DNA of 14,002 bases from positions 1 to 14,002 of IMG/VR virus record IMGVR_UViG_3300029828_000052; one strand, given 5' to 3'. Of this stretch, positions 2,341 to 14,002 are shown one piece after another. Source of the stretch: a virus (Duplodnaviria > Heunggongvirae > Uroviricota > Caudoviricetes). The notes below the pieces were generated by a model. The model made no database searches and had not been told where the DNA came from. It was given only the letters and a program-made list of their open reading frames with translations. A program made the position numbers and the translations under genes. Positions within the stretch are counted from its first letter, which is position 1; every line of letters starts with the position of its first letter.

Positions 2341-2419
2341 ATTGATAAACCTCATTACAGATTTAAGGGTGAACAAATCCCTGCCATTGCTGGCATATAA
2401 AAATGAAACCGGATATTTA

Positions 2420-2623
2420 TTACGGTGCTGGTTTAAGTCCTGCCGGGATTTCGTTATTGTCCATGTGAATAACTTTATCAACCGGATAACAGTTACCGGG
2501 AATTTTCTGTTCTGCTGCGGCAGCCATGCATTCTTTCATCGAACCGTAAATGTCAATAACCAGGTCAACAGGCTCGCCAGTGTTAAGAAAAACAGTCAGA
2601 GTGAGGGCAACAGCAGTATTCAT
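2420..2623 (-). CDS. Small protein (67 aa), YdfD-like position downstream of dicB
   Basis: Internal ATG (2623-2621) of ORF 2420..2677; ATGA start/stop overlap with dicB gives translational coupling; AGGA upstream. Identity as YdfD is by position only. Confidence 0.5.
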   Translation of the reverse strand: MNTAVALTLTVFLNTGEPVDLVIDIYGSMKECMAAAAEQKIPGNCYPVDKVIHMDNNEIPAGLKPAP

Positions 2624-2808
2624 TGCCAGTATCCTTTTTGCATCAGACGTAAACGGGCCAGCATTGAAACAATGCATATTTTATTTAATAGCTCCCGTTC
2701 TTGTTTTCTCTTGTTAATGGCATCTTCAGTAAATACAGGGTTACTGATAGTGACACCAATTTCAAAACAACCTTCAGACGTATTAACGTTTGGTAATAAC
2801 GTTTTCAT
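2620..2808 (-). CDS. dicB: Cell division inhibitor DicB (62 aa)
   Basis: Internal ATG (2808-2806) of ORF 2620..2904 preceded by AGGA; the 62-aa product MKTLLPNVNTSEGCFEIGVTISNPVFTEDAINKRKQERELLNKICIVSMLARLRLMQKGYWQ matches my recollection of DicB in size and sequence; lies about 180 bp downstream of the DicF-like sRNA as in the Qin dicB operon. Confidence 0.8.
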   Translation of the reverse strand: MKTLLPNVNTSEGCFEIGVTISNPVFTEDAINKRKQERELLNKICIVSMLARLRLMQKGYWQ

Positions 2809-2991
2809 TATCGCGTCCTCAACAATGAATTTTGTGATGCAGTGCCTGGTGCCTCCAGGTGACGTTAACCAGTTAACAATTAACGCCGGATACAGAGAAC
2901 CCACCCATAAGAACCAATACGGAAGTCAACTGGCCTTTTTAACTGTTCCGCGTGCGCTGAGCCGCATTCACCGCATCACAAAATTCACTTT

Positions 2992-3050
2992 AAAAAGGGC
3001 GGACATCAGCCAGCAATGAAAACTGATGCCGCCAAAAGGTAATCAACATG
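2992..3050 (-). ncRNA. dicF: DicF-like small RNA with intrinsic terminator (boundaries approximate)
   Basis: Minus strand reads ...UUGAUUACCUUUUGGCGGCAUCAGUUUUCAUUGCUGGCUGAUGUCCGCCCUUUUU. It shares the UUUGGCGG(U/C)AUCAGUUUU core and the GCCGCCCUUUUU-type terminator with DicF as I recall it, and sits immediately upstream of dicB. Confidence 0.6.
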
Positions 3051-3281
3051 GGTTGTTGCAGCTGATTGCCACAACCGGAAGCGCACGGACGAAGATGCCG
3101 GCGGCACGCAACAGAGGGAGAAATAACTTCGCCGTGCGCTTTCGTGTTGTGCCCTGGCTTTTCAGGGATATATCCTTTCAGTAAACTGTCAGTGCCGGAT
3201 TCTTATCCGTGTCCGGCGCACGACCACACGTGGCAGCGTGTTGGTCTCCATTTTTAACCCAGAACCTCAATGGAGGATAAA

Positions 3282-3491
3282 ATGCCAAACAGACCAATAC
3301 ATCCGCTTATTGAAAAACAGATTGAATGTCTGGTTAATCAACTCAGGCAATCAGGGTTATTAAAAACTCATTCAGAGTTAAGACTCACGGAATCAGCATT
3401 TGACGATAAATTAAATAATGCGCTTTATAATGGCATCATTGATTACAATCGTGGTGCTGGTCGCCGTGGCCCTGCTGGTACTGCTTTGTAA
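3282..3491 (+). CDS. Hypothetical small protein (69 aa), convergent with the 212-aa gene
   Basis: ATG at 3282 with GGAGG 5 nt upstream (the ORF track start at 3270 lies inside that SD). Only ORF in a 440-bp stretch. Stops back-to-back with the opposing gene (TAATTA at 3489-3494). No recognisable family. Confidence 0.4.
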   Translation: MPNRPIHPLIEKQIECLVNQLRQSGLLKTHSELRLTESAFDDKLNNALYNGIIDYNRGAGRRGPAGTAL

Positions 3492-4130
3492 TTACCAGTT
3501 AATCCAGAGCGGATAGTGTTCAGCATAAATATAGCTATACACATCCAGGTTGTATTTGTGGTCTGTCCTTAGCAGGTCGCAAATACACGCCGCAGCTTCC
3601 AGGGAAGCGGCTTTGTTGCTGAATAACCATGTAGCAACATTCCAGCGATTATCTTTATCCCACTCTTTTGCGAGAGCTGACACCACGAAGGAGCCGTTGG
3701 TGTTGCCATCAAATACTTCCGTTTCCAGATTTTTAAGTAATGCCTGGTGAATTTTTGCCAGGTATTCAGTCGGAATTTCGCCACGAATTCGGATAAGGTT
3801 GTCATAAACAAACATGTTTCCCGCATATGGCGATTTTTCTTCCTTGTTTTTTAAACCAGCATCATGAGCAAACTGATCAATTTCTTCTTCCGTTGGTTTT
3901 GTATTGATGTTTTGCGCTGTCGCTTCTGCAATTTTCTTTGCCACATTCTCTGGGTCGTGTTTATTTACAGACGCACAGAAATACAATCCGGTAAACGCAT
4001 CGCGCACATTACGAACCATATTATCGATGGCTTCTTTTTCTACGGTACTCAGGTCAAGAGTCGCCAGTTGGGAACGAACTATATTCGCTGCCGTTTCCTG
4101 GAATTGCATTGGTAAATCTTTAAATTCCAT
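3492..4130 (-). CDS. Hypothetical protein (212 aa), no recognisable family; part of an apparent insertion between the ydfC-like gene and DicF
   Basis: Complete ORF in the track; start lies 22 nt downstream of the ydfC-like stop with a GAGG-type SD; translation looks protein-like, not low-complexity. Confidence 0.75.
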   Translation of the reverse strand: MEFKDLPMQFQETAANIVRSQLATLDLSTVEKEAIDNMVRNVRDAFTGLYFCASVNKHDPENVAKKIAEATAQNINTKPTEEEIDQFAHDAGLKNKEEKSPYAGNMFVYDNLIRIRGEIPTEYLAKIHQALLKNLETEVFDGNTNGSFVVSALAKEWDKDNRWNVATWLFSNKAASLEAAACICDLLRTDHKYNLDVYSYIYAEHYPLWINW

Positions 4131-4152
4131 TATTAACCTCGTTGGTTAGCTA

Positions 4153-4371
4153 TTAACGCGGGTATGTAATCATTCTGGCAATGCTTAATGCCGCTGCTTT
4201 TTCCAGCCTGGTGATATCCTGCTCCAGAGCGGACAGATTTTCAGCCTGCTTAGCCCTGGCTTCATTGGCCCATTTCAGATCCTGCGCTGCATTAATTTTC
4301 TGGCGCATCCACTCATAAAGTTCATCATCGGTATAGTCTGGCGCGATGATGACGGGTTCTCGTTTCTGCAT
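4153..4371 (-). CDS. YdfC-like small protein (72 aa)
   Basis: Complete ORF with GAGGA SD; position and size match ydfC of the dicB operon. Confidence 0.7.
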   Translation of the reverse strand: MQKREPVIIAPDYTDDELYEWMRQKINAAQDLKWANEARAKQAENLSALEQDITRLEKAAALSIARMITYPR

Positions 4372-4401
4372 ACTGAATTCCTCGCGGTGATGTTTCGCTT
4401 A

Positions 4402-4530
4402 TCAGCCGTTATATTTTGCCGAACTGGAAAGCGCCTGTTTAAATTCGTTGAAGCTGAGAGCTTCTTCGCCTTCGGCAAGGCCTTCGAAGTATTCTTCGTA
4501 AGCCTTTTCCATGATTGTGTCGAAATCCAT
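4402..4530 (-). CDS. YdfB/YdaG-like small protein (42 aa)
   Basis: My own translation (below the ORF-track size cutoff): MDFDTIMEKAYEEYFEGLAEGEEALSFNEFKQALSSSAKYNG. ATG sits 1 nt after the upstream gene's stop; AGGTGAG SD. Confidence 0.6.
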   Translation of the reverse strand: MDFDTIMEKAYEEYFEGLAEGEEALSFNEFKQALSSSAKYNG

Positions 4531-4531
4531 A

Positions 4532-4687
4532 TCACTCACCTGAGTTTCTTTCCAGCCAGCGACGCGCGCCAGATTCGGTTTTAAACATTTTGCTTTTGGT
4601 ATACGTCATCGCGGTGAACGTGCCGTCCTGGTTTGGGAACACGCCGCATACCAGAGATTCGTTGTTACCAAGATCGATAGTATCCAT
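4532..4687 (-). CDS. YdfA/YdaF-like small protein (51 aa)
   Basis: Internal ATG (4687-4685) of ORF 4532..4780 with GAGG SD: MDTIDLGNNESLVCGVFPNQDGTFTAMTYTKSKMFKTESGARRWLERNSGE. The 31-codon upstream extension runs through the operator sequence and is not used. Confidence 0.65.
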   Translation of the reverse strand: MDTIDLGNNESLVCGVFPNQDGTFTAMTYTKSKMFKTESGARRWLERNSGE

Positions 4688-4765
4688 ATTGACCTCATTT
4701 CCCCTTAACGCCGGGGTAGCGGAACTGTTTGCTGAGAACACCGTGCGGTGTCTTGATGGGTGGTA

Positions 4766-4877
4766 ATTTAGTTTTCTCATGAATTCTGGTCAAGTATTTT
4801 TAATGAGAAAACTCAACATTTAATGCAAAATAAAGCCAATACATTGAAATGTAAGGCTTTAAAATTTGTGAAGGGGG
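4766..4877. promoter_or_regulatory. Leftward early promoter/operator region (PL/OL-like) with two operator-like palindromes
   Basis: AT-rich intergenic region between repressor stop and first early-left gene. TGAGAAAACTCA at 4804-4815 and imperfect copy TTTAGTTTTCTCAT at 4768-4781, centres about 34 bp apart; same motif as the operator at 5336-5349. Confidence 0.5.
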
Positions 4878-5285
4878 TTACTGATGTTTGTTACGTTTGC
4901 GAGCTTCTAGTAGCTCGGTGAATAGGCGATTAAAATTCTCAACGCGGGCACGGAGTTCGCTGATTTGTGCTTGCTGCTCTGATTTTGGAAGTGCGCGATA
5001 CAATCGCAACATCTCCAACTCATCTTCCGATAAGTCTAAGGCGCTGTTGAGTGCAACTGGTGGATCTGGTGTTTTATCCTCGTCACCAAACAGTATCCAA
5101 GTTGGTGAACATTGCAATACCTCAGCCAGGCGATGCAAATTTTGCCCGCGCGGGGCTGTATGGTCGCTTTCCCATAGTGAAATTGATGAGCCAGATACGC
5201 CAGCAGCTTTGCTTAAATCGTTTTGACTTAAACCAACCTGTTTGCGTCTTTCTCTAATTCGTTGACCTAAAGTTTTCTCGTTCAT
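4878..5285 (-). CDS. dicA: HTH XRE-family prophage repressor, DicA-like (135 aa)
   Basis: Complete ORF; N-terminal HTH (LSQNDLSKAAGVSGSSISLWE); VLQCSPTWILFGDEDK and ARVENFNRLFTELLEARKR match my recollection of DicA; divergent from a cro-like gene. No obvious SD, so possibly leaderless. Confidence 0.9.
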   Translation of the reverse strand: MNEKTLGQRIRERRKQVGLSQNDLSKAAGVSGSSISLWESDHTAPRGQNLHRLAEVLQCSPTWILFGDEDKTPDPPVALNSALDLSEDELEMLRLYRALPKSEQQAQISELRARVENFNRLFTELLEARKRNKHQ

Positions 5286-5362
5286 ATTTAGATATCTTAA
5301 TAACCCTTGACTTGAGATTCCTTGAGTGATTACTATTGAGAAAACTCAACTTTGGAGGGGTG
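5286..5362. promoter_or_regulatory. Divergent promoter/operator region (PR/OR-like)
   Basis: -35 TTGACT (5307-5312), 18-nt spacer, -10 TACTAT (5331-5336); perfect palindrome TTGAGAAAACTCAA (5336-5349) overlapping the -10 and +1; CTTGAG half-sites at 5311-5316 and 5321-5326; GGAGGGG SD at 5354-5360. Confidence 0.6.
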
Positions 5363-5590
5363 ATGTTTAAATCAGACGTAATTAATTTTTATGGGACGAA
5401 AGCCAAAGTAGCGAAAGCTGCTGGTGTTGATCCATCTGCTGTTTCTCAATGGGGGGAATTGGTTCCTGAAGGTCGCGCGATGCGCCTGCAAGAGGCATCC
5501 GGCGGGGAACTTCAGTACGACCCCAAAGTTTATGACGAATATCGTAAGGCAAAGCGGGCGGGGCGGTTGAACAATGAAAATCACCCCTGA
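5363..5590 (+). CDS. dicC: Cro-like regulator, DicC/YdaS family (75 aa)
   Basis: ATG at 5363 sits 3 nt after the GGAGGGG SD; the track start at 5336 is a TTG inside the operator. Small basic protein divergent from the repressor gene. Confidence 0.75.
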   Translation: MFKSDVINFYGTKAKVAKAAGVDPSAVSQWGELVPEGRAMRLQEASGGELQYDPKVYDEYRKAKRAGRLNNENHP

Positions 5591-6125
5591 ACAGGTTTGT
5601 GAGGCTCTGGATGCCTGGGTATGCCGACCAGGAATGACACAGGAGCAGGCGACGATATTAATCACGGAAGCATTCTGGGCTCTGAAAGAACGCCCGAACA
5701 TCGATGTTCAACGCGTCACGTTTAATGATGGCGAGGTTGATCAACGGGCGCTGGGCGTTAACCGGGTGAAGATATTCGAACGCTGGAAAGCTATCGACAC
5801 CAGGGATAAGCGGAAAAAATTCACGGCGCTGATTCCGGCAATTATGGAGGCTATCCGAATTAGTGATTTCAGGTTGTATCGTGAGATCAGTGATGGAAAA
5901 AGCATTACGTACATGATCGCCGGATTAAACAAAGAATATGGCGATGTGGTGGAGTCTGGGCTGCTTTTTGCGGATCCATCTGTTGTGGAACGTGAGACTG
6001 ACGAGCTTATAGAAAAAGCTATTGCTTTCAAGCATGCGTATCGTCAGCAATATCAATATTACTTTGCAGATAAACAAATGTCTGCCAGGGGTTCGTATGA
6101 GTATCGATGCACTACGATGGGCTAA
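5574..6125 (+). CDS. YdaT-like (CII-like) regulatory protein (183 aa)
   Basis: Complete ORF overlapping the cro-like gene by 17 nt; second gene after cro; contains ALIPAIMEAI, resembling what I recall of Rac YdaT. Confidence 0.7.
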   Translation: MKITPEQVCEALDAWVCRPGMTQEQATILITEAFWALKERPNIDVQRVTFNDGEVDQRALGVNRVKIFERWKAIDTRDKRKKFTALIPAIMEAIRISDFRLYREISDGKSITYMIAGLNKEYGDVVESGLLFADPSVVERETDELIEKAIAFKHAYRQQYQYYFADKQMSARGSYEYRCTTMG

Positions 6126-7137
6126 AAAGGTGAAAACCGGCAGTTCATCCAGTAAGTCTGTATTGACCTGGCTTGCTGATATGTGCGGTGCCGATTTGTG
6201 TGCATACCCGTCTGTATCTGCACTGGCAGAAGTAACGGAACTGAACAAAAAGACTGTGCAGGACAGCTTACGACACCTGATGGAGATTGGGTTAATTGTT
6301 GATACCGGTGAGAGAAAAGGCAAAACAAAGCAAATTGTGGTGTACCGACTTATCGGTGTAGAAGAAAGTGTTGCCGAGCCTGAATACACCCAAAAACGGG
6401 AGTCTTTAAAGGTGGGTAAAATTGGTGCTGTTAATAAAAACAGTACCGAAAATGGTTATGTTTCAGCACAAAACAGACCCAAAAACGGAACTCTTAGCTG
6501 CATGGAAAATAACCAAAGACACCCAAATTTTCCATCAAAGACACCCAAAAACGGATCACGGAACCCAAAGGAACCCAAAGATCTAAACCCCACACATAAC
6601 GCACGCGAGAGTGCTCCGACCAGTGAGCAGGAGGTTTTGTCGTTACAGGCAGCCCCCCCTGTATTCCTGGATGGCCTGAGCGAACCCATCGGAAAATTCC
6701 CGATGAGCGATAGCTGGTATCCGTCACGGGATTTTCGACGACGGGCTGCGTTGTGGGGGATGGCTTTGCCGGAGACAGAATTTACACCTGCTGAACTTGC
6801 CGCCTTCCGGGACTACTGGGCAGCGGAGGGTAAAGTTTTCACGCAGGTTCAGTGGGAGCAGAAATTCGCCCGTCACGTAAATCACGTCAGGGCGCAGGCT
6901 AAACCAGTCAGCAAGGGGGTAAACCATGCAGCAGCACCAGGTGGCACCGCATCACGGGCAGTTCAGGAAATTCGGGCAGCACGTGAGCAGTGGGAACGTG
7001 AAAACGGATTTATCAACGACGGAAACTGCCTGGAAGCTGTGGGAACTCATGGGGGAGGTTTATTCGAACCGCTGGACCCAGAAGAACGGGGCCGCACCTT
7101 CGAAGCTCTGGATTGCACAGATTGGCGCGATGACTGA
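6097..7137 (+). CDS. Replication initiation protein, O-like (N-terminal HTH, low-complexity linker, DnaT-like C-terminal region)
   Basis: ATG at 6097 with AGGGG SD (track start 6022 is further upstream). N-terminus MSIDALRWAKK...SVSALAEVTELNKKTVQDSLRHLMEIGLI is HTH-like; linker NRPKNGTLSCMENNQRHPNFPSKTPKNGSRNPKEPK coincides with the iteron-like repeats; C-terminal DSWYPSRDF...FRDYWAAEGKVFTQVQWEQKFARHV. The last ~70 codons overlap the P-like ORF. Confidence 0.75.
   Translation: MSIDALRWAKKVKTGSSSSKSVLTWLADMCGADLCAYPSVSALAEVTELNKKTVQDSLRHLMEIGLIVDTGERKGKTKQIVVYRLIGVEESVAEPEYTQKRESLKVGKIGAVNKNSTENGYVSAQNRPKNGTLSCMENNQRHPNFPSKTPKNGSRNPKEPKDLNPTHNARESAPTSEQEVLSLQAAPPVFLDGLSEPIGKFPMSDSWYPSRDFRRRAALWGMALPETEFTPAELAAFRDYWAAEGKVFTQVQWEQKFARHVNHVRAQAKPVSKGVNHAAAPGGTASRAVQEIRAAREQWERENGFINDGNCLEAVGTHGGGLFEPLDPEERGRTFEALDCTDWRDD
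6475..6580. repeat. Iteron-like direct repeats inside the O-like gene linker (candidate origin)
   Basis: AGACCCAAAAACGGAAC (6475-6491), AGACACCCAAATTTTCC (6517-6533), AGACACCCAAAAACGGATC (6539-6557), tandem GAACCCAAAG x2 (6561-6580); 21-22 bp phasing. Confidence 0.45.
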
Positions 7138-7591
7138 GCAGCAAATCCGGCAGGTCTGCCGCCAGTGCATGGACCGTTGCAGGGCAGGTGAAACATGGCC
7201 TCCGGACCTGGCTGAGTTTGTGGCGCTGATTTCGGAGAGCGGGGCAAATCCATTTGGTCTGACGGTGGATAACGTGATGGAGGAGTACCGACGCTGGCGC
7301 AACGAGTCCTGGCGATACGACGGAAGCGATAAATACCCGTGGTCTCAGCCTGTGCTGTATCACATTTGTCTCGAGATGCGTTCCAAGGGGATTGAGCGCC
7401 AGATGACCGAAGGGGAGTTAAAACGGCTTGCAGAACGGCAACTGGCGAAATGGGCAAAGCATGTTGGTAACGGACTGAGTGTTCCACCCGTCCGTAGGCA
7501 ACTGGCAGCACCCATACGTCCTGCGGGACCAACGCCAATTGAGTTGCTGAAACAGGAATATGAACGCAGGAAAGCGGCAGGTTTTGTTTGA
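6926..7591 (+). CDS. Replication protein P-like helicase loader (221 aa from ATG 6926; alternative starts 7049 or 7130)
   Basis: WPPDLAEFVALI and DKYPWSQPVLYHICLEMR resemble lambda P (GQFVAWC, SYPWKSNAHYWLV) as I recall it. ATG 6926 has a strong SD (AAGGGGG, 6-nt spacing) but overlaps the O-like ORF by 212 nt. Confidence 0.7.
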   Translation: MQQHQVAPHHGQFRKFGQHVSSGNVKTDLSTTETAWKLWELMGEVYSNRWTQKNGAAPSKLWIAQIGAMTEQQIRQVCRQCMDRCRAGETWPPDLAEFVALISESGANPFGLTVDNVMEEYRRWRNESWRYDGSDKYPWSQPVLYHICLEMRSKGIERQMTEGELKRLAERQLAKWAKHVGNGLSVPPVRRQLAAPIRPAGPTPIELLKQEYERRKAAGFV

Positions 7592-7620
7592 GTTGATAAG
7601 TAATTTTACCGGGAGGGTTT

Positions 7621-8016
7621 ATGGCGAAACCTTTTACACCCGAACAGCGGGAAGAGCTGAAGGCACGAATTATCGGATTGGTACGCAAAAATGGACGCAT
7701 GACGATGTCGCAACTGGAGAGAGCGACGGGAGCTGGCTGGCATTCGGTCCGGCGCTGCCTTGTGGATGTACTGGCTTGTGGTGATTTATACATGTCCGGG
7801 GAATACGGTGTTTTTGCATCAGAGCAGGCGTATCGTGAATGGCGTAAGACACCGGAGAAAACAACTGACCAGACACTGATTCGAAAGTTACCAGACGGAG
7901 AAATACGCCGCTACGACAGACACCTGAACATAATCTGTCGCGAGTGCCGGAAGAGTGAGGTTATGCAGCGAGTGCTGGCGTTTTATCAGGGGAAATTTCA
8001 GGAGGTGATGCTGTGA
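7621..8016 (+). CDS. Hypothetical protein (131 aa)
   Basis: Complete ORF; GGGAGGG SD just upstream of ATG; 4-nt overlap with the next gene. Confidence 0.7.
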   Translation: MAKPFTPEQREELKARIIGLVRKNGRMTMSQLERATGAGWHSVRRCLVDVLACGDLYMSGEYGVFASEQAYREWRKTPEKTTDQTLIRKLPDGEIRRYDRHLNIICRECRKSEVMQRVLAFYQGKFQEVML

Positions 8017-8279
8017 GCGAATCAAAATGTCAGGTTAATGGCAATCAGATAGAACCATGTGCGGCACTGGCAAAAGCCCTTGAGCATGATGCTGAATACA
8101 CGATGCGAAAAGGTCTGCTGATATACAAAATCTGGAATGAGAATTTAACTCGCGCCCCTGATTTGGTGATGTTGCGTTCCGGTAAATTTTCTAAATCACC
8201 TATTCGAGTCTCATTTTGCCCGTTCTGTGGTGAAAGTCTGAAAACATGGAAAAAGGAGACAACCAGTGAGCAGGATTGA
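8013..8279 (+). CDS. Hypothetical protein (88 aa), Cys-containing (CPFCG)
   Basis: GTG start at 8013 with AGGAGGT SD 6 nt upstream; GTGA overlap with the upstream gene. Confidence 0.65.
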   Translation: MSESKCQVNGNQIEPCAALAKALEHDAEYTMRKGLLIYKIWNENLTRAPDLVMLRSGKFSKSPIRVSFCPFCGESLKTWKKETTSEQD

Positions 8280-8862
8280 CTATCAGGCACTGCGTGGGGC
8301 GGCAGAAGCAATAAAAATAGCAGCCACACCACAAAAATTGCTGGCATTTCGTATGAAAGTCACACCTCAGGTTGTGCTGGCTCTACTGGATGAACGAGAT
8401 GCATTAAATGAACGCCTAGCCGAACTGGAGGCTGATTTAGCAGGGCTGGCCGAAGACCAACAGAAATCGATTGAGTCAATTAAGCAGGCTGATGAAGCTG
8501 TTAAGTTGGCACACGAGAAGTTTTCGGCGCTTGCGGCGGAGAATGAGCTGGCTCGTAAGGCAGTTCAGGCATTCTGCGATGTTGTTGGCGACAACACCGA
8601 GGTTATCGCTGAGGTGGTTGGGCGAGATAGCGTTCTGGTTATTTTGGAGGACATGAAGGCAACAGGAAATATGCCAGCCACCGATGCTTTTCTGGCTGAA
8701 GTACGGGCGCAGGGCGTGGAGATGCTGGCAAAAAATCATCAGAGTATCGTCAATGCACTTAAGGGAGATTCTTTATTTTCTGATGGTGAATACCGACATG
8801 CAGCTATTGTTTCCGCAGCTGTATATTTCGCTGCAGAGCTTCGCAAAGGAGGCAACCAGTGA
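8266..8862 (+). CDS. ead/Ea22-like family protein (198 aa)
   Basis: GTG start with AGGAG SD; N-terminal IDYQALRGAAEA and LLDERDALNERLAELEA are typical of Ea22-like proteins; paralog of the next gene. Confidence 0.75.
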   Translation: MSRIDYQALRGAAEAIKIAATPQKLLAFRMKVTPQVVLALLDERDALNERLAELEADLAGLAEDQQKSIESIKQADEAVKLAHEKFSALAAENELARKAVQAFCDVVGDNTEVIAEVVGRDSVLVILEDMKATGNMPATDAFLAEVRAQGVEMLAKNHQSIVNALKGDSLFSDGEYRHAAIVSAAVYFAAELRKGGNQ

Positions 8863-9467
8863 GAAAAATTAATTATCAGGCGCTACGTGATGCGGCAGAA
8901 AAGGCAACACAGGGTGAATGGGTCGCATTTATTTCGCCGGGCAAATACGGCACGTACGCCGTGCACACACCAGGAGATAATCATCACGGAGATATTGTCG
9001 ACTGGCCTGGATTCGACGGACAGAAAAACGCAGAGAACAACGCTCGTTATATCGCAGCTTTCAACCCTGAAGTAGTGCAGGCGCTGTTGGATGAACGAGA
9101 AGCCCAAAGCAAACGCATTGCAGAGCTGGAGGCTAATTTCACGGTGCTGGCAGTGGAGAATGTTGGAATAAAGTCTGCAATCCCAGAGCCACGGGATATT
9201 GAGGATGACAATGACAATATGGATGACGTCTCTCTTGCTGAAGACTTCGGATTCAATCATGCAATAGAATGGATGAGGAGACGGATTGAAACTCCAGCCA
9301 CCGACGCTTTCCTGGCGGATGTGCGGGCTGGGGCGTTTAACGACCTTTGCGCGGCGTTTGTCAGGCACGCAAAAGTTGCAGGACTGGATGATGCCGATAC
9401 CGTAACGCTTAAGGAAGTGACAGAAGTATTGTTGCATTGTGCGGAACAGATTCGCGCGCCTGAATAA
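8859..9467 (+). CDS. ead/Ea22-like family protein (202 aa), tandem paralog
   Basis: GTG start in GTGA overlap with the upstream paralog; shares INYQALRDAAEKA, LLDEREAQSKRIAELEA and PATDAFLADVRAG with it. Confidence 0.75.
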   Translation: MRKINYQALRDAAEKATQGEWVAFISPGKYGTYAVHTPGDNHHGDIVDWPGFDGQKNAENNARYIAAFNPEVVQALLDEREAQSKRIAELEANFTVLAVENVGIKSAIPEPRDIEDDNDNMDDVSLAEDFGFNHAIEWMRRRIETPATDAFLADVRAGAFNDLCAAFVRHAKVAGLDDADTVTLKEVTEVLLHCAEQIRAPE

Positions 9468-9562
9468 TTAAATTTAGTGTTGTAAATAAAATTTAATCCT
9501 TAACCGGAGGGATTTCTGCACCCTCAGAACATCAGGAGGCCGCCCGAAAGGGCGGTAATGAA

Positions 9563-9745
9563 ATGCGAAAGTTCAAAATAATTATTGAAACGGGAATAGC
9601 TGGTGGAGATTTTGAAGATGTATTCGAAGTGGATGATGATGCGACACCAGATGAAATAAAGGACGAAGCAAAAGAAATTTTCTTTAACTACTGCAATTAC
9701 TCATATCACGAAATAAAAGACGAGGAGGAAGAACAAAATGGCTGA
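9563..9745 (+). CDS. Small highly acidic protein (60 aa)
   Basis: Complete ORF; very D/E-rich; AGGAGG lies about 30 nt upstream, separated from the ATG by a GCCGCCC-GAAA-GGGCGG hairpin. Confidence 0.55.
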   Translation: MRKFKIIIETGIAGGDFEDVFEVDDDATPDEIKDEAKEIFFNYCNYSYHEIKDEEEEQNG

Positions 9746-9914
9746 TTTTGGTTCAACTAAATATAACGCCAGTTTTGAAGAATGGCATGAACTGTTAATG
9801 GATTATGCAGAGTTACGCGGTGGAAGTGCCGCTGATGCTGAAGCATGGCGTGATGATTATGAAGCAGGAAAAACTCCGGTCGAAGCATATTGTGATGAGT
9901 GGGGCGATGAATGA
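9738..9914 (+). CDS. Small acidic protein (58 aa)
   Basis: My own translation (below track cutoff): MADFGSTKYNASFEEWHELLMDYAELRGGSAADAEAWRDDYEAGKTPVEAYCDEWGDE. ATGGCTGA overlap with the upstream gene; GAGGAGG SD. Confidence 0.5.
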   Translation: MADFGSTKYNASFEEWHELLMDYAELRGGSAADAEAWRDDYEAGKTPVEAYCDEWGDE

Positions 9915-9935
9915 ACCACCACAAGAGGGGGCATA

Positions 9936-10112
9936 ATGAAAATGCGGATGGGAAATTGTTTATTGCCGTATCTGGTGCGGTTTGGGGCGTCGTCATTAAC
10001 AGTTATTCCACATGTCATGATGGTTGACAATATTATCCCGGCACCGAAGCGCCGTACCGGTATTGCAGCGGCACGACGTGCAGCAAAGAAACGCAGGAGA
10101 GCAAAACGATGA
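9936..10112 (+). CDS. Small protein (58 aa) with hydrophobic N-terminus and Arg/Lys-rich C-terminus
   Basis: My own translation: MKMRMGNCLLPYLVRFGASSLTVIPHVMMVDNIIPAPKRRTGIAAARRAAKKRRRAKR. AGAGGGGG SD 5 nt upstream; ATGA overlap with the next ORF. Confidence 0.4.
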   Translation: MKMRMGNCLLPYLVRFGASSLTVIPHVMMVDNIIPAPKRRTGIAAARRAAKKRRRAKR

Positions 10113-10297
10113 AAAACCGTAAAGCAAAAATTCTGTTAGCTCGCAGAAACGGTCCTGGCGTCTGGCAGTGGGTGAGACTCAGCAACCGACGAATGGGGTT
10201 GATGAAATATTACGGGATGATGGATTGTGGTTTTTGCAAAAAGCCCAGCGCGGCGCAAAACCGCTGGAAAAACCACTTGCGCACTAAAGGAGAGTGA
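10109..10297 (+). CDS. Small basic protein (62 aa)
   Basis: Complete ORF; GGAGAG SD; translationally coupled to neighbours on both sides. Confidence 0.5.
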   Translation: MKNRKAKILLARRNGPGVWQWVRLSNRRMGLMKYYGMMDCGFCKKPSAAQNRWKNHLRTKGE

Positions 10298-10298
10298 T

Positions 10299-10814
10299 AT
10301 GGCGTTAACACACCGCGAACTCTGTCAGATTGCGTATAAGTTCCTTAAGCGCAACGGGTTCAAGGTTTGTTTTCATGACCGCTTTATAGCTGTAACCAGT
10401 ACCGGAGAACAGCCAGATGCTATGGGATTCAGAAATTCAGCATCATGCCTGATAGAGGCGAAATGTTCTCGTGCTGACTTGTTGGCAGATAGAAAAAAGC
10501 GTTTTCGTAAAAATCCGTCTCTTGGAATGGGCGACTGGCGATTCTTTATTAGTGAGCCGGGAATTATTTCAGTTGAGGATTTACCACCTGGCTGGGGATT
10601 ACTTCACGTTGTTAACGGAAGAGTACGGAAAGTACATGGGTGGCCCAAGGGGAATTGCTGTTGGGGTAACCCTGAAGATAAACCTTTTATTGGGAATAAG
10701 CAGGTTGAATGCGATTACATGTTATCTGCATTAAGGCGCATGGAGTTGAGAGGGCACCTTAATGAAATATATGACGGCGTAATTGTTAATAAGAAAGAAG
10801 GAAACGCGGCATGA
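10299..10814 (+). CDS. Hypothetical protein (171 aa) with PD-(D/E)XK nuclease-like motif
   Basis: ATG at 10299 with AAGGAG SD 6 nt upstream (the track start at 10227 overlaps the previous gene). GEQPDAMGF followed by CLIEAKCS fits a PD...ExK signature. Confidence 0.65.
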   Translation: MALTHRELCQIAYKFLKRNGFKVCFHDRFIAVTSTGEQPDAMGFRNSASCLIEAKCSRADLLADRKKRFRKNPSLGMGDWRFFISEPGIISVEDLPPGWGLLHVVNGRVRKVHGWPKGNCCWGNPEDKPFIGNKQVECDYMLSALRRMELRGHLNEIYDGVIVNKKEGNAA

Positions 10815-11317
10815 CCACTATTACCAAAGAGCGACTACTGACAATCAAGCAGTGGCGCGAAACATACGGACCTGGTAGCAACGTTATACTGCCAGCAGAA
10901 GAAGCGGAAGAACTGGCACGGATTGCACTGGCATCACTGGAAGCAGAGCCGGTGGTTTACATGTGGGATAGCGAAAGAAAAGATATTGATGCCCCCGGGT
11001 ATTATCGGGCTGAGCATTTAGTGTTCGCTGAGAGTAGTGTTAAGCAATGGGGAGGGCGAGTTGTTCCACTTTACACCGCCCCGCCAGCGACGGTAGTGCC
11101 GGAATTTGAAACATGGTTTAACAGCCAGGAGCCAGGGAGGAGTATATGCAGCACACAGATTCGTCGCTCCCTTCAGGAAATCTCATGGAACGCCTGCTGC
11201 GCCGCTCCCTTCAGGAAATCTCATGGAACGCCTGCTGCGCCGCCATGCTTCAGGGGAAAGGCGATGGTATCCTCACCAATGAGGATACCAAAGGGGACGT
11301 TCAGGTACGGGAATTAA
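10811..11317 (+). CDS. Hypothetical protein, C-terminus frameshifted by a 38-bp tandem duplication (possible pseudogene)
   Basis: ATGA overlap with the upstream gene; protein-like up to the repeat at about 11165, then an aberrant tail (PFRKSHGTPAAPPCFRGKAMVSSPMRIPKGTFRYGN). Confidence 0.55.
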   Translation: MTTITKERLLTIKQWRETYGPGSNVILPAEEAEELARIALASLEAEPVVYMWDSERKDIDAPGYYRAEHLVFAESSVKQWGGRVVPLYTAPPATVVPEFETWFNSQEPGRSICSTQIRRSLQEISWNACCAAPFRKSHGTPAAPPCFRGKAMVSSPMRIPKGTFRYGN

Positions 11318-11442
11318 CAATGCTGATTAAACAACTGGCTAGCCAATTGAGGAAAGCGAAGCCGAACTGCAAATTACCGGAGAAGGCGATGGTCTACCTG
11401 AAGCGAAACGGACTGATAAGCGCGGAGGATATTTTACGATGA
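11146..11442 (+). CDS. ORF carrying the displaced C-terminal part of the upstream gene (98 aa from ATG 11146)
   Basis: ATG at 11146 with GGGAGGAG SD; after the duplication the frame reads a protein-like tail (GILTNEDTKGDVQVRELTMLIKQLASQLRKAK...). Removing one repeat copy fuses it in-frame to 10811. Confidence 0.4.
   Translation: MQHTDSSLPSGNLMERLLRRSLQEISWNACCAAMLQGKGDGILTNEDTKGDVQVRELTMLIKQLASQLRKAKPNCKLPEKAMVYLKRNGLISAEDILR
11165..11243. repeat. Perfect 38-bp tandem direct duplication (2 copies) inside coding sequence
   Basis: GCTCCCTTCAGGAAATCTCATGGAACGCCTGCTGCGCC at 11166-11203 and again at 11204-11241, checked base by base; period-38 identity spans 11165-11243. Confidence 0.95.
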
Positions 11443-11522
11443 CCTGGCCTGAAGCATTCACAACGGTAGGAATTGCGATGGCGGTGGCGCTGGTGGTGTA
11501 TTCGATTTGCCGCTGGGGATAA
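11439..11522 (+). CDS. Putative small hydrophobic peptide (27 aa)
   Basis: My own translation: MTWPEAFTTVGIAMAVALVVYSICRWG. ATGA overlap with the stop of 11146..11442; GGAGG about 10 nt upstream. Speculative. Confidence 0.3.
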   Translation: MTWPEAFTTVGIAMAVALVVYSICRWG

Positions 11523-11674
11523 AAACGGTTTGCGGGAAAAGGAGAGTTAAGTAGAATTGCTGCGGGTGCTTGAGGCTATCTGCCTCAGGCATGAACACCA
11601 AAAGGCAGATAGAGAAAAGCCCCAGTTAACATTACGCGTCCTGCAAGACGCTTAACATTAATCTGAGGCTCCCT

Positions 11675-11887
11675 ATGCATGACAACATCAGGTTAGCCTC
11701 TTACGTGCCGAAAGGCAAGGAGAAGCAGGCTATGAAGCAGCAAAAGGCGATGTTAATCGCCCTGATCGTCATCTGTTTAACCGTCATAGTGACGGCACTG
11801 GTAACGAGGAAAGACCTCTGCGAGGTACGAATCCGAACCGGCCAGACGGAGGTCGCTGTCTTCACAGCTTACGAACCTGAGGAGTAA
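11675..11887 (+). CDS. Mok-like reading frame (in-frame N-terminal extension of hok, 70 aa)
   Basis: Complete 70-aa ORF that contains Hok; this architecture matches the annotated chromosomal mok/hok pairs as I recall them. Confidence 0.5.
   Translation: MHDNIRLASYVPKGKEKQAMKQQKAMLIALIVICLTVIVTALVTRKDLCEVRIRTGQTEVAVFTAYEPEE
11732..11887 (+). CDS. hokD: Hok/Gef-family type I toxin (51 aa), HokD-like
   Basis: MKQQKAMLIALIVICLTVIVTALVTRKDLCEVRIRTGQTEVAVFTAYEPEE: single transmembrane helix and conserved C-terminus typical of Hok; followed by a 3' stem-loop and an intrinsic terminator. Confidence 0.85.
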   Translation: MKQQKAMLIALIVICLTVIVTALVTRKDLCEVRIRTGQTEVAVFTAYEPEE

Positions 11888-11955
11888 GAGACCAGGCGAG
11901 GGAGAAATCCCTCGCCACCTCTGATGTGTCAGGCATCCTCAATGCACCCGCACTT

Positions 11956-11980
11956 AACCCGCTTCGGCGGGTTTATTTTA
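11956..11980 (+). terminator. Rho-independent terminator downstream of hok
   Basis: ACCCGC-TTCG-GCGGGT stem-loop followed by TTATTTTAT. Confidence 0.7.
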
Positions 11981-12345
11981 TCTGTAAATATTTTTATAAA
12001 AATAATGCCCACACACAGCATAAAACAAAAAGTATCACAGATAAAAAAGGAGCGTAATGTGCAGATTTGTTGTTTTCCATATTTACTCACTTTAACATAA
12101 TCAATATTGATATGGTTGTTGTTTTGGTGGTTTCAAACGAGATGTTATGGTGATCTGGTAAAATTGCATAACATTAAAATTTAATTTATCTAATCGCTTT
12201 TAATAATAAGCGTTGTGTTTATCCCAACAATCTGTTGTTTGACTTTTATTCCATTAATGTAGGGGCTTTACACTGGAACCAGTTTATTTATACTTTATAC
12301 GCCAGCCTGAACAACTGGCACCTGCTGCGCCAGCAGAGACAACCG

Positions 12346-12624
12346 ATGGCGCACGATACCAAATTACACAATTCTGATGATTCTGCCGTCTTTGCCAGCA
12401 GGTGCGGACGGCGTTTTCATGCATTCAAATCGGACTGGTTCCAGCATCCACCATGCACTGAAGAGCAGGCTGAATGGATAATTCAGTGTTACCGCAGGCG
12501 CGGATACGAGGTTAAAAAAGCCCTTAGCCTCGACTACCGTCACTGGATAATCTCCGTCAGGCTTCCTTACTCCGAACGCCCACCGCGTCCGTCCCGCACA
12601 TTCCAGCAACGCATCTGGAGGTAA
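12346..12624 (+). CDS. Hypothetical protein (92 aa), Rem-like position between hok and the DUF968 gene
   Basis: ATG at 12346 inside ORF 12235..12624 (track start is a TTG in the AT-rich region); weak SD; stop 1 nt before the next gene's GTG. Confidence 0.5.
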   Translation: MAHDTKLHNSDDSAVFASRCGRRFHAFKSDWFQHPPCTEEQAEWIIQCYRRRGYEVKKALSLDYRHWIISVRLPYSERPPRPSRTFQQRIWR

Positions 12625-12625
12625 C

Positions 12626-13675
12626 GTGCGGGTATTACTTCGACCTGTTCTGGTACCGGAACTCGGGCTGGTGATAGTTAAGCCGGGCCGTGAATCCATG
12701 CCGGTATTCCACAATACCCGGGTACTGGTGGAGCCGGAACCGAAAAGCATGCGTAATCTGCCGTCCGGGGTCGTTCCTGCCGTTCGCCAGCCGCTGGCGG
12801 AGGATAAATCATTACTGCCATTTTTCAGCGACGAACGAGTGATTCGTGCTGCTGGTGGCGCTGGCGCATTGTCTGACTGGTTACTGCGCCATGTTAAATC
12901 CTGCCAGTGGCCACACGGCGATTATCACCATAGTGAAACCGTCATTCACCGTTATGGTACCGGCGCAATGGTGTTGTGCTGGCACTGCGACAACCAGTTG
13001 CGTGACCAGACCTCCGAATCACTTGAGCAACTTGCTCACCAAAACTTGTCAGCATGGATGATTGACGTCATTCGTCACGCAATGAATGGCACACAGGAGC
13101 GGGAATTATCGCTGGCTGAATTATCCTGGTGGGCGGTCCGCAATCAGGTGGCGGACGCGCTACCGGAGGCGGTATTACGTCGTTCGCTGGGGTTGCGTGC
13201 GGAAAAAATCCGCTCAATGTACCGTGAAAGCGACATCGTACCGGGAGAGCAGACCGCCACCAGCATACTGAAACAGCGCACAAAAAATCTTGCGCCGCTG
13301 CCTCACGCCCACCAGCAACAGAACCCACCACAGGAAAAGACGGTGGTCAGCATTGCCGTTGATCCTGAGTCTCCGGAATCTTTCATGAAACGACCTAAAC
13401 GTCGCCGCTGGGTTAACGAGAAATACACACGCTGGGTGAAGACACAGCCGTGTGCGTGTTGTGGTAAGCCAGCCGACGATCCCCATCACCTGATTGGTCA
13501 TGGTCAGGGCGGAATGGGGACAAAATCTCACGATATTTTCACGCTACCGCTGTGTCGGGAGCATCACAACGAGCTTCATGCGGATCCGCTGGCGTTCGAA
13601 GAAAAGCATGGTTCTCAGGTTGATTTAATTTTTCGTTTTCTTGATCACGCCTTTGCAACTGGCGTGCTTGGGTAA
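12626..13675 (+). CDS. DUF968 domain protein, YdfU-like (349 aa), with Cys/His HNH-like motif
   Basis: GTG start with GGAGG SD; C-terminal CACCGKPADDPHHLIGHGQGG...CREHHNELH; sits immediately upstream of rusA as in Qin-type prophages. Confidence 0.85.
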   Translation: MRVLLRPVLVPELGLVIVKPGRESMPVFHNTRVLVEPEPKSMRNLPSGVVPAVRQPLAEDKSLLPFFSDERVIRAAGGAGALSDWLLRHVKSCQWPHGDYHHSETVIHRYGTGAMVLCWHCDNQLRDQTSESLEQLAHQNLSAWMIDVIRHAMNGTQERELSLAELSWWAVRNQVADALPEAVLRRSLGLRAEKIRSMYRESDIVPGEQTATSILKQRTKNLAPLPHAHQQQNPPQEKTVVSIAVDPESPESFMKRPKRRRWVNEKYTRWVKTQPCACCGKPADDPHHLIGHGQGGMGTKSHDIFTLPLCREHHNELHADPLAFEEKHGSQVDLIFRFLDHAFATGVLG

Positions 13676-13687
13676 AAGAGGTGACTG

Positions 13688-14002
13688 ATGCTCATAGATT
13701 TGGTTTTACCTTACCCGCCGACGGTGAACACTTACTGGCGACGCCGTGGCAGCACATATTTTATCTCGGAGGAGGGAAAGCGTTATCGCCGGGCTGTGGT
13801 GCTTATTGTTCGCCAGCAGCGGCTGAAATTAAGCCTGTCCGGAAGGCTGGCGATAAAGGTGATTGCAGAGCCACCGGATAAGCGCCGCCGCGACCTGGAC
13901 AATATCCTGAAGGCACCACTGGATGCGCTGACGCATGCCGGACTACTTATAGACGACGAGCAGTTTGATGAAATCAATATTGTGCGCGGTCAGGTCGTTC
14001 CT
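13688..14002 (+). CDS. rusA: Holliday junction resolvase RusA, 3'-truncated by window edge
   Basis: My own translation from ATG 13688 (AAGAGG SD): MLIDLVLPYPPTVNTYWRRRG...PDKRRRDLDNILKAPLDALTHAG, matching the RusA signature (PDRRRRDLDN..K...DAL); open to the window end. Confidence 0.9.
   Translation, partial: MLIDLVLPYPPTVNTYWRRRGSTYFISEEGKRYRRAVVLIVRQQRLKLSLSGRLAIKVIAEPPDKRRRDLDNILKAPLDALTHAGLLIDDEQFDEINIVRGQVVP

Follow-up and report, generated by a model that had tools for sequence, protein, structure and literature searches.

A conserved translation-initiation sequence at the boundaries of stacked Ea22-family genes and other accessory genes of lambdoid prophages

The stretch of DNA analysed here (14,002 nucleotides, positions 1 to 14,002 of IMG/VR record IMGVR_UViG_3300029828_000052, a tailed virus of the Caudoviricetes; hereafter the window) belongs to a lambdoid prophage of the Rac/Qin type and holds its immunity, replication and accessory region. 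It carries two Ea22-family genes, Ea22#1 (8266-8862, 198 amino acids) and Ea22#2 (8859-9467, 202 amino acids), which lie on the plus strand, like all features below unless stated otherwise, and which both start with GTG. Each gene begins at the 3' edge of a 19-nucleotide (nt) sequence, the junction, whose two copies we call A1 (8252-8270) and A2 (8845-8863). An original prediction, made from the letters of the window, saw in this repeated sequence a recombination linker that lets Ea22-type genes be stacked.

That the two genes are diverged members of one family was borne out. Both pass the gathering cut-off of PF13935 (Ead_Ea22), with 37.5 bits for Ea22#1 and 112.1 bits for Ea22#2 against a threshold of 27, and phrog_368 covers both from end to end; they share 34% identity over 120 amino acids. 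They display the three-part architecture of the Ead/Ea22 proteins, that is a conserved N-terminal head, a central coiled coil (called from sequence only) and a variable C-terminal part. Ea22#1 has a short head resembling that of lambda Ea22, the coiled coil, a PATDAFLAEVRA block and a helical C-terminal part ending in …AAELRKGGNQ*. In Ea22#2 the Ead/Ea22 N-terminal domain is complete; a short coiled coil, a PATDAFLADVRA block and a helical C-terminal part come after it, and the protein ends in …CAEQIRAPE* (ATT CGC GCG CCT GAA TAA). This gene closes the stack, and the intergenic TTAAATTTAG comes next, without a junction. In an alignment with lambda Ea22, the Ead protein of Rac-SA53 and E. coli homologs, I4, Q7-A-L-R10, A12-A-E14 and LDER are invariant and the C-terminal parts diverge. 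A sequence search against the PDB gave no match for either protein. The lambda homolog has been reported to have a pro-lysogenic role and to form tetramers, and the mosaic organisation of Ea22 has been published (PMC7093339, PMC10834534: lambda and Stx phages; mosaic organisation in PMC10834534). From family membership, the window proteins would be Ea22-family accessory proteins of similar function.

At the nucleotide level the two genes share four colinear blocks. The first is a direct repeat of 56 nt (8252-8307 and 8845-8900, 82% identical), of which the 19-mer is the 5' end and which runs on into the conserved N-terminal codons V-S/R-x-I-D/N-Y-Q-A-L-R. It is followed by the 'PxVVLALLDERxA…LAELEA' or 'ALLDER' block (8360-8450 in Ea22#1, 9061-9151 in Ea22#2, 73% identity, spacing 701 nt), by a third block found in the paralog comparison (8518-8545 and 9135-9162), and by the PATDAFLAEVRA block of Ea22#1 (8674-8708), which pairs with the PATDAFLADVRA block of Ea22#2 (9294-9328) at 86% identity.

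The junction itself is made of overlapping expression signals. A2 (AAAGGAGGCAACCAGTGAG), the consensus form, consists of a Shine-Dalgarno (SD) sequence AAGGAGG (7-nt match), the 6-nt spacer CAACCA and the GTG start of Ea22#2 followed by AG, while encoding the K-G-G-N-Q-stop of Ea22#1. A1 (AAAGGAGACAACCAGTGAG), with the SD AAGGAG, a spacer and the GTG start plus AG of Ea22#1, is the minor 'A' variant, which makes up 7 of 122 viral occurrences among the matches listed. The two copies are identical at 18 of 19 positions, in agreement with the near-identity first noticed, and their likeness ends abruptly upstream of AAAGGAG, the sequence further 5' being unrelated. They are the only matches in the window at up to 3 mismatches; 0.01 are expected and none of 200 shuffles gave two, so chance as the source of the two copies is rejected.

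Both genes had been thought to start within a GTGA overlap. This holds for A2, a true stop/start overlap in which the stop of Ea22#1 occupies 8860-8862, but not for A1, where the overlap is 14 nt long and out of frame. There the upstream partner (8013-8279, 88 amino acids, phrog_4030, no Pfam family) reads A1 as …KKETTSEQD* and stops at the TGA 8277-8279, 11 nt past the GTG and inside codons 4-5 (I-D) of Ea22#1. Since A1 and A2 are read in different frames (KKETTSEQD* and RKGGNQ*), conservation of the upstream protein cannot explain their similarity. Head codons 4-5 (8275-8279 and 8868-8872; ATT GAC and ATT AAT, encoding I-D and I-N) contain TGA or TAA in the +2 frame, and 67 of the 215 junction sites have the stop of the upstream gene at these codons. 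Together with the stop in GTGA, this ends an upstream gene arriving in either non-Ea22 frame at most 17 nt from the start. At A2, the SD lies 6 nt before the start, within the 5-9 nt typical of coupled genes, and inside the upstream open reading frame (ORF), and stop and start overlap, as in such genes. As the initiation region is set in the last codons of the upstream gene, we infer that translation of the second gene is coupled to that of the first by way of the GTGA overlap. Just 5' of A2, the tail block (…CTGCAGAGCTTCGC, 8831-8844, encoding AELR), conserved only in genes that end in the junction, lengthens the homology, and several high-scoring segment pairs (HSPs) begin at 8827-8837.

A search for the junction of the kind that the original prediction had proposed showed that it recurs widely next to Ea22-like genes. 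An exact-pattern scan of IMG/VR found it in at least 120 contigs, two of them with two copies; among the matches listed, an Ea22-type N-terminus comes next in 105 of 127 occurrences, and another protein in the remaining 22. A collection of one genome per species (596 Gb) gave 11 matches. Three of these, in two Escherichia contigs and in a contig of a metagenome-assembled genome labelled Sutterella, have an Ea22-type ORF after them; the remaining eight lie in unrelated taxa without such an ORF, in keeping with the ~9 chance matches estimated for a collection of this size. To control for the bias of a motif-based choice, 80 loci were fetched by protein homology, using patterns for the N-terminus and the LLDER block and leaving the junction aside. 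Among the 114 Ea22-like genes with a resolved start in these loci, 50 carry the exact consensus, 80 (70%) match it with at most 2 mismatches, and 93 start with GTG. Finally, a 70-nt query comprising tail, junction and head was matched against 5426 complete E. coli genomes; it is present in 1754 of them, about a third, at 2554 places and up to 9 times per genome, and 7 of 30 evenly sampled matches sit between two annotated Ea22-like genes. Some of these matches, 300 of the 2554, lie on E. coli plasmids of ~90-100 kb (e.g. NZ_CP085058.1, NZ_JBXSEX010000003.1), in some cases between two Ea22-like genes. These carriers are presumably phage-plasmids, in which case the same cassette system would reach beyond integrated lambdoid prophages.

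The junction is the nearly universal joint of Ea22 stacks. Among 192 distinct complete stacks there are 124 singles, 61 doubles and 7 triples. All 54 distinct Ea22-to-Ea22 joints are 4-nt overlaps; 53 of them match the junction with at most 2 mismatches, 48 exactly. Moreover, 19 full-length Ea22 clusters (85% identity) were found in more than one state, as single, first, second or third gene. The tandem pair as such is already annotated in E. coli ETEC1732 and, within the PL operon, in the isolated phage mEp213.

The partners on either side are reticulate. The 215 junction sites connect 27 sequence clusters upstream with 21 downstream, in 78 combinations; 15 upstream clusters have at least two downstream partners and 13 downstream clusters at least two upstream partners. 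The non-Ea22 genes found upstream include members of the unrelated Pfam families DUF2737, DUF4406, Lar and DUF1627; those found downstream include a PAPS-reductase-domain (PAPS_reduct) protein, DUF7739 and phrog_4030, and every non-Ea22 downstream partner begins with V-S, which is the GTG-AGY of the motif itself. When conservation was computed by site class, with one site per partner combination, positions -14 to +5 alone were conserved in every class; the 'tail' block from -30 to -15 is tied to genes ending in …RKGGNQ*, and the block from +6 to +50 to Ea22 heads. The window stack reads phrog_4030, junction, Ea22#1, junction, Ea22#2, end. In Rac-SA53 the order is DUF4406, junction, Ea22, junction, phrog_4030 (rac21), the reverse of the phrog_4030-junction-Ea22 order of the window, and the phrog_4030 homology between the two stops at window position 8249, three bases before the junction. 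These many combinations, unrelated families included, indicate that the junction behaves as a portable boundary sequence. The linker proposed at the outset for stacking Ea22 cassettes is partly supported, by the joint, the variety of partners and the clustering of breakpoints described below; a restriction to Ea22 is not, because the junction adjoins all the other families named above.

The C-terminal tails of Ea22 proteins take on a new meaning in this context. Two types dominate 217 distinct 3' ends of the family: …IKGE* (67 cases), whose DNA is CGCATCAAAGGAGAGTGA followed by T-ATG, and …GGNQ* (60 cases), which is the junction described so far (type A). The KGE* tail is written AAA GGA GAG TGA in 74 of 75 distinct contexts, a set assembled without motif-based selection, with no synonymous change, and in 71 of the 75 the next start lies 1 nt after the stop. 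These contexts combine 13 protein bodies with 25 downstream genes in 49 combinations. In the same way, the KGGNQ* tail is AAA GGA GGC AAC CAG TGA in 17 of 17 homology-selected cases. Such a lack of synonymous variation indicates that the constraint acts on the nucleotides, SD and spacing, and not on the peptide. The conserved tails, RKGGNQ* in the window and KGE* in lambda, are therefore the ribosome-binding site of the next gene read as protein. A third, 'terminal' type of 3' end is the …IRAPE* of Ea22#2 (9449-9477), after which come TTAAATTTAG and no overlapping gene; this type was seen in a handful of distinct contexts. A close relative of the Ea22#2 C-terminal domain ends in …CAEQLRKGGNQ* (LLHCAEQLRKGGNQ*) where another gene comes next. 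Dydecka et al. 2020 (PMC7093339) point out that every Ea22 protein ends with a '+GE' tripeptide, to which they assign no known significance, and the link to a ribosome-binding site is absent from that paper and from Goddard et al. 2024.

A type-B boundary is also present in the window. At 10283-10301, ACT AAA GGA GAG TGA T ATG joins the small ORF 10109-10297 (…TKGE*) to ORF 10299-10814 (MALTHRELCQ…). It is the junction that ends lambda-type Ea22 genes (…IKGE*), here placed between two non-Ea22 genes; the downstream ORF belongs to phrog_631/9263, a family that follows Ea22 KGE tails in 8 other contexts.

Comparison with related loci reveals footprints of recombination. In E. coli STEC711 (locus L134, 4667-5167), the single Ea22 gene is a hybrid in which the Ea22#1 head leads into the Ea22#2 body. 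Segments 6577-8450 and 9066-9517 of the window map to overlapping STEC711 coordinates, which places the crossover inside the shared 91-nt 'ALLDER' block; the hybrid gene is equivalent to a 701-bp deletion between the two window paralogs. In ETEC1732, the first gene of the tandem pair is 98.9% identical in DNA to Ea22#1, and the second has the head of Ea22#2, a lambda-like coiled coil and a KGE tail, the identity with Ea22#2 stopping at 9101. Homology with mEp213, mEp043 and ETEC1732 has its left edge at A1; for ETEC1732 and mEp213 it begins at 8252-8254.

These relationships also bear on a rival origin of the pair, a recent tandem duplication of one Ea22 gene that would have left identity behind at the junction. 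The head-to-tail arrangement and the four colinear blocks could be read in that sense. Yet the two proteins are too diverged and differ in their N-terminal architectures, each has far closer relatives elsewhere (Ea22#1 in ETEC1732, next to another second body; the body of Ea22#2 in STEC711), and the junction recurs in hundreds of other contexts. The original prediction had named a junction that does not recur, explained by a recent whole-gene duplication, as the outcome that would speak against a linker; we found the opposite. Divergence, architecture and the closer relatives effectively refute a recent duplication, to which we assign a very small probability.

Breakpoints were followed through a proxy, the endpoints of HSPs in a BLAST comparison of the window with the fetched loci, a sample partly selected by the motif. 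In this partly motif-selected sample 11 HSPs start at A2, for a background 95th percentile of 6, and A1 exceeds its background only marginally. The type-B junction collects 16 endpoints for a 95th percentile of 3, in loci that were not selected for the type-B motif, and position 10286 is the most frequent single HSP start. HSP ends also cluster at ~8705-8724 and 9316, around the PATDAFLAEVRA and PATDAFLADVRA blocks, and endpoints cluster at other gene boundaries too.

In the reading that we favour, based on sequence comparison and given a probability of about 70%, the downstream gene has its translation initiated at the 19-mer, which doubles as a portable boundary sequence for the homologous recombination of cassettes. 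The junction is in the first place a ribosome-binding site and start, set in the last codons of the gene upstream. Because it is common to many boundaries of lambdoid accessory genes, where it comes with the ~15-nt 'tail' or the ~40-nt Ea22 'head', it would also serve as a homology patch. Copies in co-resident or co-infecting phages could pair, and homologous recombination, by phage annealases of the Red-beta, Erf or RecT type or by RecA, would then swap what lies on either side and permute gene order. Pairing of a copy at the 3' end of a gene with one at the 5' end would produce stacked Ea22 cassettes, and the internal homology patches of Ea22 genes would yield hybrid genes. The lengths involved are compatible with such a process: the shortest segments that pair efficiently are reported to measure 23-27 bp with Red-beta and 31-34 bp with RecA (PMC3945230), and exact runs of at least 23 nt span the junction in 34-57% of site pairs with different flanks. 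A2 shares an exact run of at least 23 nt with 65 of 157 other sites, and A1 with 1 of 157.

Several observations weigh against this proposal. The intragenic conserved blocks (~8445, 8525, 9080) are breakpoints as frequent as the junction or more so, and the junction is consequently not a privileged breakpoint site. A1 is a degenerate variant that shares an exact run of only 11 nt with A2. In the homology-selected set, 26 of the 114 Ea22-like genes, including lambda ea22 and that of BTP1, have unrelated sequence upstream; lambda ea22 itself ends in AAA GGA GAG TGA, yet starts after a different upstream sequence. The argument for recombination and for coupling at the junction is comparative throughout; 120 of the loci were chosen because they carry the motif, and even after dereplication the IMG/VR prophages retain phylogenetic redundancy. 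A hairpin sequestering SD and start is predicted at A2. Across 55 independent sites, predicted sequestration by the tail block is 0.65 against 0.61 with shuffled flanks (p ~0.04), barely above these controls, and the effect is reversed in the other-frame site class; the hairpin was set aside as a conserved feature.

Part of this evidence would fit a plainer explanation, in which the junction is a mere conserved ribosome-binding site and start, inherited vertically with Ea22-type genes, and in which the mosaic joints arose by illegitimate recombination followed by selection, as in the Hendrix model. The near-perfect SD, the optimal spacing and the start codon all agree with it, as do the predominance of Ea22-type heads after the motif, whose first ~40 nt are conserved too, the many Ea22 genes without junction and the equal abundance of breakpoints within genes. 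However, the spacer CAACCA is invariant though it has no known translational role. The motif precedes at least 9 non-Ea22 families, all with V-S starts, and follows at least 8 in two frames; there are 78 partner combinations, phrog_4030 stands on either side of it in different genomes, and random illegitimate joints would not keep falling at one nucleotide. The invariant spacer and the reticulate partners weaken pure ribosome-binding-site conservation, which we consider unlikely without dismissing it.

A dedicated site-specific system could also be imagined, inserting cassettes at the junction as integrons do at attC or through a nearby HNH endonuclease. Like integron cassettes, the stacks consist of accessory genes placed head-to-tail in one orientation with a recurring short separator; the boundaries are sharp, falling at single-nucleotide positions, and HNH or DUF968 genes are present in the same operons. 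Unlike attC arrays, the window has no integrase and its joints overlap coding sequence. No inverted repeat, hairpin-forming imperfect repeat or dyad symmetry occurs at any of the three junctions, whose RNA folding is unremarkable (z-scores of 0.45, -1.62 and 0.08) and which have no Rfam match, the sole one in the window being sok (11564-11737). In addition, no recombinase is consistently adjacent, breakpoints also fall in ordinary conserved coding blocks, and junction variants elsewhere carry indels or an ATG start. The data favour general homologous recombination over attC-type cassettes, and a dedicated system seems to us highly improbable.

One may go further and suppose that type A (AAAGGAGGCAACCA-GTGAG) and type B (AAAGGAGAGTGA-N-ATG) are selected 'universal adaptors', kept because they promote exchange of PL and PR cassettes between co-resident prophages. 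Each type would provide the incoming gene with a strong ribosome-binding site and a start codon, and type A would also give the upstream gene stops in both other frames, through GTGA and the I-D/I-N codons. We hold this extension to be doubtful. If true, it would give the Susskind-Botstein linker model a concrete case that is widespread and open to experiment, and would explain the conserved '+GE' and 'KGGNQ' tails of Ea22 proteins.

The position of the pair had been considered unusual, since lambda ea22 was placed in the leftward b-region/PL transcript. In lambda, the gene indeed belongs to the PL transcript but lies between xis/ea8.5 and orf61/exo, in the exo-xis part and not in the b region proper. 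The window genes do not follow this arrangement; they lie on the same strand after cro, cII/YdaT, O, P and DUF977. This location is in fact routine: DUF977, a small ORF and Ea22 after the replication genes is the standard Rac/Qin-type layout, found in Rac-SA53 (ydaU-ydaV-ydaW-lygF-rac19-ead), STEC711, ETEC1732 and many RefSeq E. coli genomes. The operon side of stacks was called by marker proteins, a first set of which left 46 of 80 loci unclassified and a wider set 71 of 210 stacks. Distinct stacks so divide into 85 on the PL side, 49 on the PR side and 71 unclassified, with 28 and 16 doubles on the PL and PR sides, respectively. The junction is common to both contexts, an exact copy being present in the mEp213 PL operon. 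Thus the exo-xis location in PL is not a family-defining feature of Ea22.

The genes around the pair, called from Pfam and PHROG context, are a repressor (4878-5285, minus strand), a cro-like gene (5336-5590), a cII/YdaT-like gene (5574-6125), an O-like replication gene with a DnaT domain (6022-7137), a P-like replication gene (6926-7591) and a DUF977 (Ren-like) gene (7621-8016); small nin-type ORFs lie downstream of 9467, followed by hok/sok (11564-11887) and a DUF968/HNH gene (12626-13675). Complete E. coli genomes cover at most 69% of the window. The O-like and P-like ORFs both match the 482-residue phrog_15931, at profile positions 163-347 and 280-482, which suggests that some phages carry a fused initiator/loader protein. 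In the hok/sok-type toxin-antitoxin module, the sok RNA (Rfam RF01794, 118 bits) overlaps a mokW/hok-like ORF (11675-11887). Within 9531-9565, a stable GAAA-tetraloop hairpin (GCCGCCC-GAAA-GGGCGGT, 9538-9556) lies between an AGGAGG Shine-Dalgarno and the ATG of ORF 9563-9745, in an intergenic region of 106 nt with a fold z-score of -2.1; the segment is conserved in Rac-SA53 and ETEC1732. This hairpin could bring the SD and the start to a functional spacing, or could be a processing or terminator-like element. At the other end of the window, the long plus-strand ORFs 115-468, 489-770, 786-1124 and 2315-3019 have no Pfam or PHROG match. The plus strand of 1-3491 is T-rich, and related E. coli prophages have an exonuclease and a DUF1627 protein annotated under the match to this segment; its real genes are probably small leftward ORFs of the PL operon.

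The junction echoes several described systems. The boundary or 'linker' sequences of the modular theory of lambdoid phages (Susskind & Botstein 1978; Clark et al. 2001 for HK620), as summarised in PMC3233612, are short, conserved and located at gene edges with unrelated genes on either side, and have been proposed as sites of homologous recombination that generate mosaics. The junction is likewise a short conserved sequence at gene boundaries with unrelated flanks, in 78 combinations for type A and 49 for type B. It differs from what that summary describes in being precisely defined as two types, each of which serves the next gene as ribosome-binding site and start and is read as the C-terminal tail of the previous one, and in being the near-universal joint of Ea22 stacks. 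The motif string gave no match in a literature search whose reach stopped short of Clark et al. 2001 (J Mol Biol 311:657), where AAAGGAGGCAACCAGTGA or AAAGGAGAGTGA may stand.

Translationally coupled overlapping genes (ATGA/GTGA) resemble A2, with an SD in the last upstream codons, a 6-nt spacer and a GTGA overlap. A1 departs from them by its 14-nt out-of-frame overlap, and ordinary coupled junctions are not common to unrelated gene pairs. In T4-type phages, regulatory cassettes (promoter-early stem-loops) flank ORFs in plastic regions and have been proposed to mediate modular shuffling; there as here, an expression signal repeated between accessory genes would double as a homology patch. Those cassettes are intergenic promoters with stem-loops in lytic phages, whereas the junction is a ribosome-binding site and start in overlapping coding sequence of temperate phages. 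With the lambda Ea22/P22 Ead family, the window proteins share the head V-S-x-I-[DN]-Y-Q-A-L-R, the LLDER start of the coiled coil, a variable C-terminal part and a mosaic organisation, the truncated head being common to lambda and Ea22#1 and the full head to Stx phages and Ea22#2. Unlike lambda Ea22, the pair is on the PR side, its C-terminal parts differ from the solved lambda C-terminal domain, and its tails are RKGGNQ* and IRAPE*, not KGE*.

The locus is thus a clear but ordinary case of lambdoid accessory-gene shuffling and no new kind of system; public genomes already have such tandem pairs annotated, and in this position. What appears to be new in the searchable literature is that the two junction types are precisely defined, that Ea22 stacks use them almost universally and that the conserved tails are accounted for. 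This explanation gives a nucleotide-level reason for the conserved C-terminal tripeptide of Ea22 proteins, and it matters for the design of Ea22 truncations or deletions, the last codons being the ribosome-binding site of the next gene. More broadly, it is a long-running question whether phage mosaics arise by homologous recombination at short conserved boundary sequences or by illegitimate joining at random places, on which selection then acts. With a boundary sequence that is both abundant and sharply defined, and whose partners are measurably reticulate, phage crosses could address this question directly.

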